Positions 1,821 to 9,095 of a stretch of DNA of 14,560 nucleotides are shown here, in pieces (the first letter of the stretch is position 1; each line of letters begins with the position of its first letter). Position numbers and translations under genes: made by a program. The stretch is from a virus (lineage: Duplodnaviria; Heunggongvirae; Uroviricota; Caudoviricetes), in IMG/VR virus record IMGVR_UViG_2609459844_000001, positions 1 through 14,560 of that record; one strand, written 5' to 3'. Under the pieces are notes generated by a model. That model saw nothing but the letters and a program-made list of their open reading frames with translations, did not search any database and was not told the DNA's origin.

Positions 1821-2627
1821 ATGACTCAAAACTATGAACTGATTGTGAAAGGGATCCGCAATTTTGAGAATAAAGTTACGGTAACTTTAGCGTTACGGGA
1901 CAAAAAACGCTTTGACGGTGAAATTTTTGACCTGGACATCTCGCTGGACCGTGTTGAAGGTGCCGCGCTGGAGTTTTATGAGGCAGCAGCCAGAAGGAGC
2001 ATCAGACAGGTCTTCCTGGATGTTGCTGCCGGGTTATGTGAAGGGGATGAGCTGTCGCCGGAAAAGCGCCCCATAATTTTAGAGGCGCAGGATGTGTTGA
2101 TAACCTACAAAGGAAAGCTACCGGGAAGAATTACTGGTTCTCTGAAGATGCCGCCGTCAACACTGCGGTCAGAAAAAGAGGCGTCTTGTCTGCAGTCTGA
2201 GTACTCCATTACGGTTAAAAGTGCCGGAGAGGAAGGAAATAAACGTTATTTTATTGCGTCTGCACCTGATAAAGATCAGGAATGGGAGTGTAACCGGCCA
2301 TCCTTTGTTGTATACGGAGATGGCGGGAAAATAACCATCTCAGAAAATGGGAAATTAACACCGCCATCGCACCAGCATAGTGAGGCGCTCATTGAATTTG
2401 CCATTGATTACCTGAAGAACAATAAAAAGCAGGGGCTGATGAAGCGCATTGGTCGTTGCATGGGATATCTGCAGGTAGCAGCTGAGATTGAAATGATGGC
2501 CAGTGGTGCTGACAATGATGCAGTTGTGCTGGAGGCTCTTCTGCGTGATTTTGATAATACGCCCTTTAAGAAAGCACCTGTTGACTGGATGCAGCCGGGG
2601 ATGACTTATCTGAAAGGGCGTATATAA
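1821..2627 (+). CDS. Hypothetical protein, 268 aa, unknown function (moron inserted between holin and endolysin)
   Basis: Clean 268-codon ORF whose ATG is 4 nt after the holin stop, with a GGGGAGAG Shine-Dalgarno-like sequence inside the holin 3' end (suggests translational coupling). No TM segment or signal peptide by eye. Visibly more AT-rich than flanking phage genes. I recognise no family. Confidence 0.6.
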   Translation: MTQNYELIVKGIRNFENKVTVTLALRDKKRFDGEIFDLDISLDRVEGAALEFYEAAARRSIRQVFLDVAAGLCEGDELSPEKRPIILEAQDVLITYKGKLPGRITGSLKMPPSTLRSEKEASCLQSEYSITVKSAGEEGNKRYFIASAPDKDQEWECNRPSFVVYGDGGKITISENGKLTPPSHQHSEALIEFAIDYLKNNKKQGLMKRIGRCMGYLQVAAEIEMMASGADNDAVVLEALLRDFDNTPFKKAPVDWMQPGMTYLKGRI

Positions 2628-2636
2628 GGTGGCTCG

Positions 2637-2951
2637 TTATCTGTTGCTGGATAATCGACTGAAGATGCGTTCTTTTTGTGTTTTTGCGTAATGATTGTCC
2701 CACTCACAATCAAGGTAGCTTAATTCTTCATTCAACCAGTTATTTATATTGGTCTTAATACGCATAAGCATGGGCTGTGTTAATGCTCTGGCGATAATGC
2801 CGAGAGTCACAGGTGTGAGATGTCCATACGGCTCAGCCTGAATGGATTTTACTGCATCGTGTTCTTGTGGGAGGAGTAAGAGGCACTCTGATTTTACCCG
2901 CTCATTTATGGCTTGCAGGCATAAATCATAATTATGTTGATCGTTATGCAT
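2637..2951 (-). CDS. Hypothetical protein, 104 aa, convergent partner of the 268-aa ORF
   Basis: Minus-strand ORF of 104 codons whose stop is about 10 nt from the stop of the 268-aa gene. AT-rich; no recognisable motif. Filling the gap between two same-strand lysis genes on the opposite strand is typical of an acquired moron. Confidence 0.45.
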   Translation of the reverse strand: MHNDQHNYDLCLQAINERVKSECLLLLPQEHDAVKSIQAEPYGHLTPVTLGIIARALTQPMLMRIKTNINNWLNEELSYLDCEWDNHYAKTQKERIFSRLSSNR

Positions 2952-3079
2952 GGTTAATCCTCTACTGAAATTGTCAGATATATTTCAGCCATCAGGAAAA
3001 ACGCCAGTGTCCTACCGCTGGCGGGCTGAAGATTTAACATATCCAGGGATTCGGAACCGATAAATCCTGATAAATATCC

Positions 3080-3613
3080 ATGAACACCAAAATCAAATAT
3101 GGCCTGTCGGCTGCCGTTCTGGCGTTGATTGCCATCGGTGCGCCTGCGCCTGATATTCTCGACCAGTTTCTGGATGAAAAAGAAGGTAACCACACAACGG
3201 CATACCGTGATGGTGCGGGTATCTGGACCATCTGCCGCGGTGCCACAATGGTGGATGGTAAACCTGTTATTCCGGGCATGAAACTGTCGAAGGAAAAATG
3301 CGACCAGGTTAATGCCATTGAACGGGATAAGGCGCTGGCATGGGTGGAGCGCAATATTAAAGTTCCACTGACCGAACCACAGAAAGCGGGTATAGCGTCA
3401 TTCTGTCCCTATAACATTGGCCCCGGTAAGTGTTTCCCGTCGACGTTTTATAAGCGGCTGAATGCTGGTGACCGCAGGGGAGCGTGTGAGGCGATTCGCT
3501 GGTGGATTAAGGACGGTGGCAGAGACTGCCGTATTCGTTCAAACAACTGCTACGGTCAGGTATCCCGTCGTGACCAGGAGAGCGCGCTGGCGTGCTGGGG
3601 TATCGACAGATAA
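3080..3613 (+). CDS. R: SAR endolysin (phage 21 R21-type lysozyme, T4-lysozyme-like fold)
   Basis: 177 aa. N-terminal Gly/Ala-rich weakly hydrophobic stretch (GLSAAVLALIAIGAPAP) consistent with a signal-anchor-release domain, then an E-x8-D-x5-T catalytic triad (E..GNHTTAYRD..GAGIWT) as in T4 lysozyme-type muramidases. Confidence 0.9.
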   Translation: MNTKIKYGLSAAVLALIAIGAPAPDILDQFLDEKEGNHTTAYRDGAGIWTICRGATMVDGKPVIPGMKLSKEKCDQVNAIERDKALAWVERNIKVPLTEPQKAGIASFCPYNIGPGKCFPSTFYKRLNAGDRRGACEAIRWWIKDGGRDCRIRSNNCYGQVSRRDQESALACWGIDR

Positions 3614-3701
3614 GCAGAATATTTTGCTGAAAAATAAGGCATGGCCACGCGGGCGGATAACACGAAATCCTGCGAACTGGCGAAACGTAAGTGAATAAAA
3701 G

Positions 3702-3745
3702 TAAAAACCCCGTTTGTTGGCAGCAAGCGGGGTTTTGTTTTTATG
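3702..3745 (+). terminator. Putative rho-independent terminator just after the endolysin gene
   Basis: AAAACCCCG ... CGGGGTTTT inverted repeat followed by TTTTGTTTTT on the + strand. The loop is long (about 15 nt), so stability is uncertain. Confidence 0.4.
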
Positions 3746-3807
3746 GCAGTAAGCTATGGGAGGCTGCCTTGATTGATTTTAGCAAACTGATTAGGGAGTT
3801 GCGACTC

Positions 3808-3903
3808 ATGATTAGTCAATTACCAAACTGGAAATTTTTGCTGGTCTGGAGCATCCCTTTTTTATGGGTAGTATCCCAGTTAATTGTGGCAATTAAGGGG
3901 TAG
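3808..3903 (+). CDS. Small hydrophobic peptide, 31 aa (speculative)
   Basis: ATG at 3808 preceded by AGGGAG at 9-nt spacing; translation MISQLPNWKFLLVWSIPFLWVVSQLIVAIKG is a single predicted TM helix. Too short to be confident. Confidence 0.2.
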   Translation: MISQLPNWKFLLVWSIPFLWVVSQLIVAIKG

Positions 3904-3905
3904 CT

Positions 3906-4037
3906 ATGTCAGACAAACTCATAACGCCGGCAAAGGTCCTGTGTGTGATTGTCGGTATTTCATTTTCACTAATGCTGGTTGCTCTTTTTCTGTCCCTCGC
4001 CTGGGTGATGTTGTCTTCGTCGGGGCTGCTGGGGTGA
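3906..4037 (+). CDS. Small membrane peptide, 43 aa (speculative); TM segment resembles the Rz N-terminal TM
   Basis: ATG at 3906 preceded by AAGGGG; translation MSDKLITPAKVLCVIVGISFSLMLVALFLSLAWVMLSSSGLLG. The KVLCVIVGISFSLMLVA stretch resembles [16 protein letters not shown] at the Rz N-terminus (4256). Confidence 0.3.
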   Translation: MSDKLITPAKVLCVIVGISFSLMLVALFLSLAWVMLSSSGLLG

Positions 4038-4156
4038 CAGTGACTGATGACATCAGCAGAGCGCTGGCTTTTGCTATTAAGTGGGTGGCTGTTGGTATTG
4101 CTGTGTCTCCGATGCTATATGGGCTGGCAAAACTGGTCATTGCGCTGAAATCGTGA
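4034..4156 (+). CDS. Small hydrophobic peptide, about 40 aa from a GTG start (speculative); paralogous to the next peptide
   Basis: Translation VTVTDDISRALAFAIKWVAVGIAVSPMLYGLAKLVIALKS. Shares the motif R-A-[LM]-A-F-A-I-[KR]-x-V-A-[VI] with the peptide at 4168-4254. Start codon uncertain. Confidence 0.25.
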   Translation: MTVTDDISRALAFAIKWVAVGIAVSPMLYGLAKLVIALKS

Positions 4157-4167
4157 ACTTTAAAAAG

Positions 4168-4254
4168 ATGAGTGCTGAACTTATTCGGGCAATGGCATTT
4201 GCCATTCGTATTGTGGCCATTGCTGTTCTGGTCTGGGCAATCCGTTGGTGGTGA
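4168..4254 (+). CDS. Small hydrophobic peptide, 28 aa (speculative); paralogous to the preceding peptide
   Basis: ATG at 4168; translation [28 protein letters not shown]. Ends 1 nt before the Rz start. Weak RBS. Confidence 0.25.
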
Positions 4255-4255
4255 T

Positions 4256-4723
4256 ATGAACCGTGTTCTGTGTGTGGTGATTATTGTCATGCTGGTGGCC
4301 TGTGGTGCGCTTAGTCTGGGGCTGAATCATTACCGTGATAACGCCATTACCTACAAAGCCCAGCGCGACAAAAATGTCAGAGAACTGAAGCTGGCGAACG
4401 CGGCAATTACTGACATGCAGATGCGTCAGCGTGATGTTGCTGCGCTCGATGCAAAATACTCGAGGGAATTAGCCGATGCGAGAGCTGAAAATGAAACTCT
4501 TCGCGCTGACGTTGCCGCTGGTCGTAAGCGCCTGCGTATCAACGCCACCTGTCCAGGTCCCGTGCGTGAAGCCACCGGCACCGCCCGCGTGGATAATGCA
4601 ACCGGCCCCCGACTGGCAGACACCGCTGAACGGGATTATTTCACCCTCAGAGAGCGGCTGATGACGATGCACAAGCAACTGGAAGGGGCGCAGGAATATA
4701 TCCGTACTCAGTGCCTGAAATAA
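4256..4723 (+). CDS. Rz: Spanin inner-membrane subunit (i-spanin)
   Basis: 155 aa from the ATG at 4256: N-terminal TM ([21 protein letters not shown]), then a charged coiled-coil-like periplasmic region ([26 protein letters not shown]). Embedded Rz1 in the +1 frame. Track ORF 4172-4723 is the same frame with a non-native N-terminal extension. Confidence 0.85.
4491..4661 (+). CDS. Rz1: Spanin outer-membrane lipoprotein subunit (o-spanin), embedded in Rz
   Basis: [15 protein letters not shown] lipoprotein signal with lipobox V-S-A-C, followed by a proline-rich mature region ([18 protein letters not shown]). Entirely inside Rz in a different frame, the classic Rz/Rz1 arrangement. Confidence 0.8.
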
Positions 4724-7498: not shown

Positions 7499-9095
7499 AA
7501 GGGGGATGTATGGCCATAAAAGGTCTTGAGCAGGCCGTTGAAAACCTCAGCCGTATCAGCAGAACGGCGGTGCCCGGTGCCGCCGCAATGGCCATTACCC
7601 GATCATTCGCATTGTCATTCGCTGCTTTAACTGCCTTCGGTGTCGCGGCAAGCGTTTCAGACGTACTGTTTGTCGCACTGCTGAGCTGTACTATCCCCTT
7701 TTTCGTCGTGCTCGCATCCTCAAGCGCCACGGCGGATGCAATATCCTCTGCCCGTTTTGCCGCTGTCTCAGCGCGCGTTGCTGCGGATTCTGCCGTACTT
7801 TTGCTCTGTGCTGCCGCTGTCGCACTGCCAGCAGCCTCTGTCGCCTTTGTGGATGCCGTCGTGGCGCTGCTCTTCGCTGCTGACGCCTGTCTGGTCGCCT
7901 CATCTTTTGAAGCAGACGCCGATGATGCCGATGACGCCGCCGAACTGGCGGACGATGCCGCTGCCGTTTTTGAGGATTCTGCGCTGGTTTCCGACGCTTT
8001 CGCGTTCGTTTCGGATGTCTTCGCTGAGGAAGCAGACCTCGCTGCTGCGCTGGCCTGTTCAGTGGCTTCGCCAGTCTTCGTTGTGGCTGTTGAAGCGGAT
8101 GATGCGGCGCTTTCTGCCGATTTTCCGGCGGCGGTGGCACTGACTGAGGCCTGCCCGGCACTTGTTGATGCGGCACTGGCGGACGACGCAGCCGCTGTTT
8201 TTGAATCTGCCGCAGCTGAGGCACTCTGTCCCGCTGCCGTTTCAGAAGACCTGGCGTTCGTCTCGGACGTTTTGGCCGCCTTCGCAGAATTTGCTGTCGC
8301 CGTTGCCGAGGAAGCTGCGCTGCTGGCGCTCGAGGCTGCGCTCGTTTCTGATGATTTTGCCGCCTCTTTTGAAGCCGACGCATCCCGGGCTGAGGTGGCA
8401 GCTTCTGACGCTTTCGTGGTCGCGGTGGATGCAGAAGTGGCTGCTGATTGTTGTGACGCTGCGGCATTCGTTTCTGACGTTTTCGCCGCAGCGGCACTGG
8501 TGGCCGCCGCGCTTTTTGAGGACTCTGCAGCGGCAGCACTTTTTTCCGCTTCAGTGGCCTTTGTTGATGCCGTTTCTGCGCTGGAAGACGCTGACTGAGC
8601 CGACGACGCGGCCTGTCCGGCTGACGTGCTGGCTGCGCGTGCTGAGCCTGCAGCATCAGTCGCATGGGTTGCCGCCTCACGGGCTGATGTGCTGGCATCG
8701 CCGGCTGACTTCTTCGCGGCTGCCGTGTTCTGTGCCACTGCGGACGCGTTACGCTCCACCTCTTCCACCATCACTTCAAAACGGCGCAGTGCCTCCGGTC
8801 GGACATCATCCTCCGTCATGGCACCGAGAAAATCATTCAGCGTACCTGGTCTGGAACCTTCATAGACGGTAATGGTCCCGGCATGTGAAGGCGGAAAACC
8901 TTCAACCAGCAGGGTGACGCTGTACTGACCATGCTCAACATCCATGCTGTAACGTCCGGCTTCATCCGGATTTTCAGAGGCCACCGTGTTCACCACCACC
9001 GTGCTGCTGGTTCGTCTGGCCTTCAGCACAATGGTGCAGTTCTGTACTGGTTTTCCTGTGCCATCTTTAAGCACGCCAGAAATTTTTACTGTCAT
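7482..9095 (-). CDS. stf: Side tail fiber protein (lambda Stf / prophage StfR-like), N-terminal about 510 aa; 3' end replaced by junction sequence
   Basis: N-terminus MTVKISGVLKDGTGKPVQNCTIVLKARRTSSTVVVNTVASENPDEAGRYSMDVEHGQYSVTLLVEGFPPSHAGTITVYEGSRPGTLNDFL and the following Ala/Ser/Thr-rich repeat region match lambdoid side tail fibers. The last about 30 codons (VMAIAAAPGTAVLL...) are the reverse translation of the Z fragment and FII 3' end, so the distal receptor-binding portion is missing. Confidence 0.8.
   Translation of the reverse strand: MTVKISGVLKDGTGKPVQNCTIVLKARRTSSTVVVNTVASENPDEAGRYSMDVEHGQYSVTLLVEGFPPSHAGTITVYEGSRPGTLNDFLGAMTEDDVRPEALRRFEVMVEEVERNASAVAQNTAAAKKSAGDASTSAREAATHATDAAGSARAASTSAGQAASSAQSASSSAETASTKATEAEKSAAAAESSKSAAATSAAAAKTSETNAAASQQSAATSASTATTKASEAATSARDASASKEAAKSSETSAASSASSAASSATATANSAKAAKTSETNARSSETAAGQSASAAADSKTAAASSASAASTSAGQASVSATAAGKSAESAASSASTATTKTGEATEQASAAARSASSAKTSETNAKASETSAESSKTAAASSASSAASSASSASASKDEATRQASAAKSSATTASTKATEAAGSATAAAQSKSTAESAATRAETAAKRAEDIASAVALEDASTTKKGIVQLSSATNSTSETLAATPKAVKAANDNANDRVMAIAAAPGTAVLLIRLRFSTACSRPFMAIHPPFSGDG
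7510..7597 (+). pseudogene. Z: Tail protein Z, 5' fragment (first 29 codons) ending at a rearrangement junction
   Basis: ATGGCCATAAAAGGTCTTGAGCAGGCCGTTGAAAACCTCAGCCGTATCAGC...GCAATGGCCATTA matches the lambda Z start (MAIKGLEQAVENLSRIS), 11 nt after FII as in lambda. Similarity stops at about 7597, where minus-strand tail-fibre coding sequence begins. Confidence 0.75.

Follow-up and report, generated by a model that had tools for sequence, protein, structure and literature searches.

What lies between the endolysin and spanin genes of a lambdoid prophage when the two do not adjoin? The question is raised by a stretch of 14,560 nt from a virus of the Caudoviricetes (IMG/VR record IMGVR_UViG_2609459844_000001; hereafter the window, meaning the whole stretch analysed). 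It is a lambdoid prophage lysis region of Escherichia coli type, and in it 642 bp (3614-4255) separate the endolysin gene R from the i-spanin gene Rz. An earlier note on this DNA had read four small hydrophobic open reading frames (ORFs) on one strand in that gap; they are present where it placed them and evolve under purifying selection in the frames it proposed. The four, here termed A to D, are conserved micro-protein genes belonging to a variable cassette system of enterobacterial late operons, with a conserved hairpin in front:

Gene A, 3769-3903, + strand: 44 amino acids (aa) from a TTG start; phrog_6632; a cytoplasmic amphipathic helix (IDFSKLIRELR...) and then one transmembrane (TM) helix.
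Gene B, 3906-4037, + strand: 43 aa; phrog_4906; a single TM segment; N-terminus MSDKLI.
Gene C, 4034-4156, + strand: 40 aa, most likely from GTG 4034; phrog_3246, phrog_1115 and phrog_4493; one continuous helix.
Gene D, 4168-4254, + strand: 28 aa; phrog_4493; a short paralog of C with the C-terminus ...WAIRWW.

A to D are genuine protein-coding genes under purifying selection at the protein level. Ratios of non-synonymous to synonymous substitution (dN/dS), estimated by the Nei-Gojobori method between diverged alleles with each gene's own frame set against the two other frames, were 0.04-0.31 for the core of C (proportion of synonymous differences up to 0.69), 0.08-0.32 for D across ten alleles, 0.14-0.30 for A and 0.17-0.54 for B, whereas the other frames gave values of about 1 or above (0.7-2 for B). 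The length of B is kept, its 103 protein clusters being mostly of 43-44 aa, and its full 43 codons were found by tblastn in 276 of 50,697 phage records at 62-100% aa identity; the core of C, AFAIKWVAVGIAVSPMLYGLAKLxIALKS, is nearly invariant in 33 distinct sequences. PHROG profile hidden Markov models (HMMs) matched A (6632, E 1.3e-12), B (4906, E 4.5e-21), C (3246, 1115 and 4493, E 1.9e-27 to 7e-17) and D (4493, E 3.8e-6), with matches to phrog_4493 and phrog_3246 shared between C and D. All five families are annotated 'unknown function', and membership is silent on mechanism. Two competing frames were rejected, a hydrophobic one at 4047-4148, in which the variants resemble frameshift products, and an antisense ORF of 123 aa at 3919-4290; both are without family matches and neither is a conserved frame. 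Where a coding strand specifies hydrophobic residues, an open frame on the opposite strand is nothing unusual.

Each gene would encode a single-pass inner-membrane micro-protein, membrane insertion being suggested by a Kyte-Doolittle value of 1.9-2.9 in the best 19-residue window of each peptide and by AlphaFold2 (AF2) models in which A forms helices at residues 4-16 and 21-43 (mean confidence, pLDDT, 81) and C one continuous helix over residues 2-39 (pLDDT 93). The periplasmic parts are only 2-7 residues long. Strong sequence constraint falls on the TM helix in C and on the cytoplasmic amphipathic helix in A, and the periodicity of variability gave no significant sign of one conserved helix face in C (1462/5000) or B (1977/5000).

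The sizes given in the earlier note hold for B (43 aa), C (about 40 aa) and D (28 aa) and fail for A, the conserved form of which has 44 aa and not 31. The frame of A is open from 3691, and the 31-aa version, 3808-3903 from ATG 3808, is too short because homologues of 44-45 aa in E. coli, Salmonella, Providencia, Citrobacter, Enterobacter and Klebsiella begin M(I/V)DFSKLIRELR, which corresponds to the TTG at 3769; GGGAGG lies 5 nt upstream of this TTG. That N-terminal segment is almost invariant across the six genera; the TM part varies. A 70-aa version from GTG 3691, present in RefSeq for some genomes, is too long because its frame would cross the hairpin. Gene C most likely starts at GTG 4034, within a GTGA that overlaps the TGA stop of B, with GTG 4040 (38 aa) as the alternative; the RefSeq start at CTG 4001 is doubtful because that stretch, which lies inside B, is not conserved in the family. 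The RefSeq models of A and C thus look mis-started, and B, C, D and, where annotated, A are labelled there as hypothetical proteins. Given a gap of 2 nt between the A stop and the B start, an overlap of 4 nt between B and C, a gap of 11 nt between the C stop and D, and a D stop that ends 1 nt ahead of the Rz ATG at 4256, A to D and Rz form one tightly packed, same-strand translation unit.

Two further features precede this unit:

3614-3702, + strand: conserved untranslated stretch after R (GGGCGGATAACACGAAATCC...), found also after the endolysin of Salmonella prophages.
3703-3745, + strand: GC-rich hairpin followed by a U-tract, intrinsic-terminator-like, with a 15-bp stem and a folding energy of -21 kcal/mol.

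A distance of 23 nt separates the hairpin from gene A downstream. The hairpin recurs before the first small ORF, at about 25-30 nt from A-type genes and roughly 55-130 nt from others, in phages that carry only a 37-aa D (D37), in the Salmonella prophage locus L100, in cassettes with a GH108 endolysin and before A-type genes of Enterobacter, Klebsiella and Citrobacter, two non-lysis contexts included; RNAalifold kept 13 pairs, 5 of them with compensatory changes. It was not found in arrangements of the type of locus L088 or in those containing ant. The mobile unit appears to be a hairpin plus a gene. A consensus scan found no sigma-70 promoter between the hairpin and the Shine-Dalgarno sequence (3745-3769), and the position of the hairpin ahead of genes with no promoter of their own suggests that in a lambdoid late operon they would be expressed only on Q-antiterminated readthrough.

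Over query positions 3-236, Salmonella phages SPN3UB and FSL SP-016 match the stretch after R at 76% of nucleotides; the stretch could also be aligned with L100 and, together with the hairpin region, gave no match in Rfam. As a separate observation, 3614-3745, the post-R stretch with its hairpin, is conserved between E. coli and Salmonella prophages and could be a small RNA derived from the 3' untranslated region of the endolysin transcript. In L100 itself a hydrophobic ORF of 29 aa, MICFVAAFMLACDGRSGWGWFLLVGLIVM (2724-2813), overlaps the endolysin stop (ATGA) and lies upstream of the hairpin.

Comparison with the R-Rz interval of related prophages, which the earlier note had proposed, revealed that the peptides are kept in many combinations, with one to five of them in the interval between the endolysin and the next gene, with or without ant. 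The arrangements recovered, in which a prime or a number marks a variant of the lettered type, are as follows:

A-B-C-D: the window.
D37 alone: among its carriers are other phages with the same S21-type holin.
E (50 aa)-C47-A2-D28: interval between endolysin and next gene.
C60-D: interval between endolysin and next gene.
C60-B-C-D: interval between endolysin and next gene.
ant-A'-B-C-D: interval between endolysin and next gene.
ant-A'-B' and ant-B': Shiga toxin (Stx) phages, the latter in the order ant-B'-Rz.
A2-C38-B2-lipoprotein: after a GH108 endolysin with holin_8 and holin_3_7, without a Pfam spanin.
C60: between a signal-arrest-release (SAR) lysozyme and Rz in Salmonella, with holin_2_3.
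A-type gene: after a GH19 endolysin in Enterobacter, with holin_8 / holin_3_7.

Small ORFs thus follow the endolysin directly in five types of cassette (holin_2_1 with SAR lysozyme and Rz, GH108, Salmonella holin_2_3, Enterobacter GH19 and the Stx ant-B'-Rz order), and the peptides, up to five separate single-helix ones of 28-65 aa, co-occur with at least four holin families and with endolysins of four unrelated kinds. In the Qin prophage of E. coli K-12 rrrQ and rzpQ overlap and leave no gap, so the peptides are accessory; A to D are non-essential, interchangeable cassettes. By far the most occurrences lie immediately after the endolysin gene. A-type genes also stand in two non-lysis positions, between tail genes I and J in Citrobacter and in the baseplate module of a Klebsiella grimontii myovirus. 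The 28-aa and 37-aa variants of D were always directly upstream of Rz in the recovered loci, an adjacency that is partly ascertainment given that these loci were retrieved through a pattern in the 3' end of D. The A-B-C-D block is essentially one allele, with a nucleotide diversity of 0.004 over 3560-4280 vs 0.07 in R and 0.06 in Rz (six contiguous haplotypes) and 99-100% identity in 121 copies, figures to be read with the caveat that the loci were fetched through C or the 3' end of D.

Some of these cassettes hold further small genes. At 2071-3461 of the E. coli locus L092, and likewise in L093-L099, Phage_holin_8, holin_3_7 and a GH108/PG_binding_3 endolysin occur with no Pfam-recognisable spanin, and the small peptides are followed by a lipoprotein of 51-60 aa with the lipobox LVGC, a member of phrog_7528 (unknown function); it might act in lysis at the outer membrane as a component not recognised so far. 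In the Enterobacter loci L224-L227 (2661-3083) the A-type gene is followed by overlapping ORFs of 92 and 63 aa without a Pfam match, a pair whose arrangement looks like that of an overlapped two-component spanin.

The families are widespread in E. coli. The region at 3614-4255 matches strain 55989 at 100% identity and matches 2068 of 5426 complete E. coli genomes, with a coverage of 80% or more in 587; B-type DNA is present in 1702 of the 5426 (31%), with up to 11 copies per genome, and C-type DNA in 1594 (29%). Phages with a full-length B are mostly Stx1a and Stx2a phages, in which the ORF is usually unannotated; C is carried by only 12 sequenced phages, all recent isolates. Plaque-forming or induced carriers include PhiR5/PhiR12, vB_EcoS and Stx phages. 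The C/D family is narrow, with only 11 close relatives of C in an exhaustive HMMER search of 1.84 billion representatives, named C/D matches in E. coli and Salmonella, and none in a scan of GTDB species-representative genomes. A to D had no matches in the PDB, nor in Pfam or NCBIfam at E<=1.

As to where the genes came from, the earlier note had taken the last two ORFs for paralogs on the strength of a shared motif, RA[LM]AFAI[KR]xVA, and this is borne out: none of 2000 composition-preserving shuffles reached the C/D protein alignment score (z 5.8, and 9.5-10 for other C/D variants). D resembles C minus about 11 residues of TM segment and tail, the N-terminal variants of C (MKNGLELKAPVTDDISRA..., MSADFIRAV...) are mirrored in D (MKGIEVETPASLDLTRA..., MSADFIRAT...), and a full-length C-type protein with an ...AVRWW end (P0198) bridges the two. 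Its further suggestion of a tandem duplication does not stand. Nucleotide similarity between C and D is not significant (74/500 shuffles reach the score), and each has separate orthologues elsewhere, D-type genes being known between R and Rz without C, and C-type genes without D in Salmonella and GH108 cassettes; for these reasons a recent duplication of C into D was rejected, and C and D are read as old paralogs that modular recombination has made neighbours. A may be distantly related to both, such that A, C and D would make up one superfamily, judging by the alignment of their TM and C-terminal halves (SIPFLWVVSQLIVAIKG vs VSPMLYGLAKLVIALKS; hhalign E 1e-4, probability 57%) and by A-type proteins of other genera that end in RWW as D does. 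B stands apart as a family of its own. A-, C- and E-type peptides away from Rz can likewise end in RWW. In an unrelated viral contig (L191), two copies of an E-like peptide of 36 aa (phrog_12997; 939-1118 and 2444-2644, - strand) end in ...IWAIRWW and ...VHAIRWW and flank a toxin-antitoxin-like pair beside a terminase small-subunit-like gene; because of these copies, the tail can be said to recur in small peptides outside the Rz context.

Other origins fared poorly. The resemblance that the earlier note saw between the TM segment of B and the N-terminal TM segment of Rz is weak (13/2000 shuffles at the protein level before correction for 16 tests; 12 nt shared, 38/500 shuffles), and an origin of B from the 5' end of Rz found no support. 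C shares the pattern W-x-A-x-G-x-x-x-S with the second TM domain (TMD2) of the S21 pinholin (4/2000 shuffles, uncorrected for the 16 tests), but hhalign gave a probability of 1% and E 0.055 and there was no Pfam holin match, so that neither descent from nor mimicry of the holin was accepted. The note had also entertained decayed duplications of the 5' ends of lysis genes and, as what would refute its reading, a degraded copy of a known gene such as an anti-repressor; the first is at odds with the purifying selection on the ORFs, as is the second, and ant, when present, is a separate insertion upstream of A. An origin by fragmentation of a four-TM gene like lysA of phage P2 was likewise rejected, there being no similarity to LysA and the families occurring singly, with their own starts and in differing orders. 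One ENA contig of 554 nt (P0092) holds a chimeric ORF in which the N-terminus of an S21-type holin, to Trp36, is fused in register to C from its Trp; this single occurrence is probably a microhomology-mediated deletion in a decaying prophage.

The reading of function tentatively preferred here, which is possible and far from secure, is that A to D are late-expressed inner-membrane modulators of lysis. Q-antiterminated late transcription would read through the hairpin, and A to D would appear as the lytic cycle closes, together with the holin, endolysin and spanin; the peptides would then act in the inner membrane and tune the membrane step of lysis, possibly by setting when the holin or pinholin triggers, by governing how membrane-tethered endolysin is released, or by both, and D, the last ORF, would additionally couple translation into Rz. 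A role in tuning lysis is suggested by the repeated position after the endolysin, the packing that ends in Rz, the late-only design, the dispensability of the genes and the strong constraint upon them. Several points weigh against it. Profile searches found no homology to a characterised holin, antiholin, releasin, spanin or defence protein, and no mention of the peptides or their accessions was found in the literature or in ribosome-profiling supplements for enterohaemorrhagic E. coli, the cultures of which were uninduced. The peptides occur alongside several unrelated holins and endolysins, so that a sequence-specific partner within the cassette is not obvious. The terminator-like status of the hairpin is that of a predicted fold with a U-tract, and antitermination is not expected in non-lambdoid contexts. 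Furthermore, the A-type genes in tail or baseplate modules of Citrobacter and Klebsiella are better suited to general late-operon cargo than to a dedicated lysis factor.

Such cargo, without a role in lysis and directed at a host inner-membrane target, for instance for superinfection exclusion by blocking DNA entry or, as with small membrane proteins of the host, for modulation of a transporter, protease or sensor, is the main rival, though a rather unlikely one. Beyond the non-lysis positions of A-type genes, it would explain why the cassettes shuffle independently of holin and endolysin type, why the GC content of the array (0.42-0.50) is below that of the flanking R and Rz (0.52-0.62) and why the N-terminus of A hardly varies between genera, a constancy that points to a conserved host partner. 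However, the great majority of occurrences directly follow the endolysin gene, and the combination of an upstream terminator-like hairpin with no promoter of their own speaks against the expression in the lysogen that classical exclusion morons need; in addition, periplasmic parts of 2-7 residues offer little surface outside the membrane, and the PADLOC defence HMMs matched none of A, B, C, D, A2, E or C60 at E<=1. An improbable alternative is that D, or whichever ORF comes last before Rz, is mainly a translational-coupling leader that restores ribosome delivery to Rz once cassettes have come between R and Rz, its peptide being incidental. The junction is suggestive, given that D stops 1 nt before the Rz ATG, that its last codons (TGGTGGTGA) form the Shine-Dalgarno region of Rz and that D, the shortest and most truncated member of its family, lacks a Shine-Dalgarno sequence for its own start; in K-12 Qin it is the endolysin gene rrrQ that overlaps the start of rzpQ, and D-type ORFs always adjoin Rz in the recovered loci. 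This adjacency is in part a product of how those loci were found, however, and the amino-acid-level selection on D extends to the part away from the Rz ribosome-binding site, while the RWW C-terminus is also carried by peptides of the A, C and E types that do not stand beside Rz.

Still less probable is that the peptides are toxic membrane peptides akin to type I toxins (Hok, Ldr or TisB-like), or abortive-infection effectors, silenced by the upstream terminator. Size and hydrophobicity fit type I toxins, a strong upstream hairpin would stop leaky expression and there is an antisense promoter-like site at 3912-3883. Nevertheless, antisense promoter matches do not exceed those in shuffled sequence (2 found, 2.1 expected), no Rfam antitoxin small RNA and, by the consensus scan, no own promoter was found, and four genes packed in one unit with Rz differ from type I toxins, which are solitary with long structured 5' untranslated regions; the genes are moreover carried in the late operon of viable phages. 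The least credible reading, already largely refuted, is that the ORFs are non-functional, be they chance ORFs, decayed 5' ends of lysis genes or a broken four-TM LysA-like gene. In its favour are the sum of 31+43+40+28 = 142 aa, close to the 141 aa of LysA, the weak likenesses of B to Rz and of C to holin TMD2 and, among near-identical copies of the block, 5 non-synonymous vs 1 synonymous change in B, where the 12 polymorphic sites of the block are too few for a test of selection. These are countered by frame-specific purifying selection in all four genes, by families that occur alone, with their own starts or in other orders (A2-C-B in GH108 cassettes, D37 alone, B' alone), by the missing similarity to LysA, by the negligible hhalign probability of C against the holin and by nucleotide similarity to Rz or holin that is not significant in the relevant regions.

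If A to D are instead lysis modulators, the known systems offer partial precedents. Gram-negative phage lysis is taught as three steps, carried out by holin, endolysin and spanin; few accessory regulators are known, among them antiholins, P2 LysA and Mu releasin, and every one came to light through genetic work on a single phage. By analogy, P2 LysA can be regarded as a positional counterpart and Mu releasin as the closest mechanistic precedent, neither being homologous. LysA is a non-essential membrane protein whose gene has the endolysin gene K on one side and the spanin genes lysB/lysC on the other, and the P2 record annotates lysA as 'nonessential; affects timing of lysis'; it is however one protein of 141 aa with several hydrophobic segments, whereas A to D are separate single-helix peptides in variable sets, and no sequence similarity was found between them (198-761/1000 shuffles reach the observed scores). 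Release of the Mu SAR endolysin depends on gp25, the releasin, a protein tethered to the membrane; members of the releasin family are also known beside cytoplasmic endolysins (PMC9239132). Gp25 is small, belongs to a SAR-endolysin cassette and works from the cytoplasmic or membrane side, and gene A too encodes a conserved cytoplasmic helix with a TM anchor. In A, however, the domain order is reversed, with the cytoplasmic helix first and the TM segment last; A to D are much shorter and lack DUF2730 or any other Pfam match, and the window cassette has a holin where Mu has none. Bearing on the idea of a releasin, C-type genes also accompany a GH108 endolysin without an N-terminal TM segment.

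Antiholins (lambda S107, S21-71, T4 RI and P1 LydB) are small membrane proteins, encoded alongside the lysis genes, that time lysis by TM-TM contacts with the holin. A to D share with them a place in lysis cassettes, after the endolysin in five cassette types, and a membrane-embedded character as judged by hydropathy and AF2 helices. The known antiholins are N-terminally extended holin isoforms or larger proteins, whereas A to D are not holin isoforms, show no holin homology and had no match at E<=1 among the Pfam and NCBIfam holin families, PF04971 (Phage_holin_2_1) included. Nor do they have the make-up of spanins, since they are of 28-44 aa, lack a lipobox and extend past the TM segment by about 7 residues at most, and PF03245 matches only the true Rz. 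To the morons of lambdoid phages (HK97 gp15, lambda bor/lom) they are alike in being small accessory genes of differing GC content between conserved late genes and absent in close relatives, and the comparison with K-12 Qin and the varied R-Rz gaps shows insertion between genes that are adjacent in related phages. A classical moron brings a promoter of its own, ends in a terminator and is active in the lysogen; in the array the terminator-like hairpin comes first, the consensus scan detected no promoter, and D runs into Rz with a translational link.

A broader and more doubtful proposal is that A to D and their relatives (A2, E, D37, C48/60) constitute a previously unrecognised class of antitermination-gated, interchangeable single-helix lysis regulators, insulated by a terminator from leaky expression, which would set the time of holin triggering or of tethered-endolysin release in a large fraction of enterobacterial temperate phages. 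About 30% of complete E. coli genomes have cassettes of the A-D kind in a lysis region, where most of the genes are left without annotation or called 'hypothetical'. Should they tune lysis, burst size, prophage-mediated killing and Shiga-toxin release would be affected, and the B-type gene upstream of Rz in hundreds of sequenced Stx phages would influence both the timing and the amount of toxin released. The terminator-first layout would be a simple way to tie toxic membrane peptides strictly to late antitermination.

The gene order around the array is holin, YdfR-like ORF, reverse-strand gene, R, the 642-bp gap and Rz/Rz1, with these lysis genes:

1601-1816, + strand: S21-type class II holin (pinholin-like), 71 aa; phrog_9876 and phrog_20 holin, E 2e-40.
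3080-3613, + strand: endolysin R, a lysozyme of 177 aa; PF00959, E 2.8e-25; phrog_7 endolysin.
4256-4723, + strand: Rz i-spanin, 155 aa; PF03245, E 2e-51; phrog_13.
4476-4661, + strand: Rz1, embedded in Rz; the Rz1 Pfam family matches the homologous gene in locus L088.

A protein identical to the holin is labelled 'class II holin family protein' in loci L001 and L002. A hydropathy scan of the N-terminus of R identified a weakly hydrophobic, SAR-like segment after a short basic cytoplasmic start, MNTKIK. Elsewhere in the window, at 8099-8520, two matches to the Rfam family isrG fell far short of the gathering score of 100 (26 and 21 bits) and are probably due to chance. The holin-endolysin interval contains an ORF of 268 aa (1821-2627), the N-terminus of which corresponds to the YdfR-like PHROGs 406 and 2091 and the C-terminus to phrog_1085, followed by a reverse-strand gene of 104 aa (2637-2951; phrog_1853). 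In strain 55989 the YdfR gene at the same place is annotated as truncated, which marks a further variable spot in the lysis cassette.

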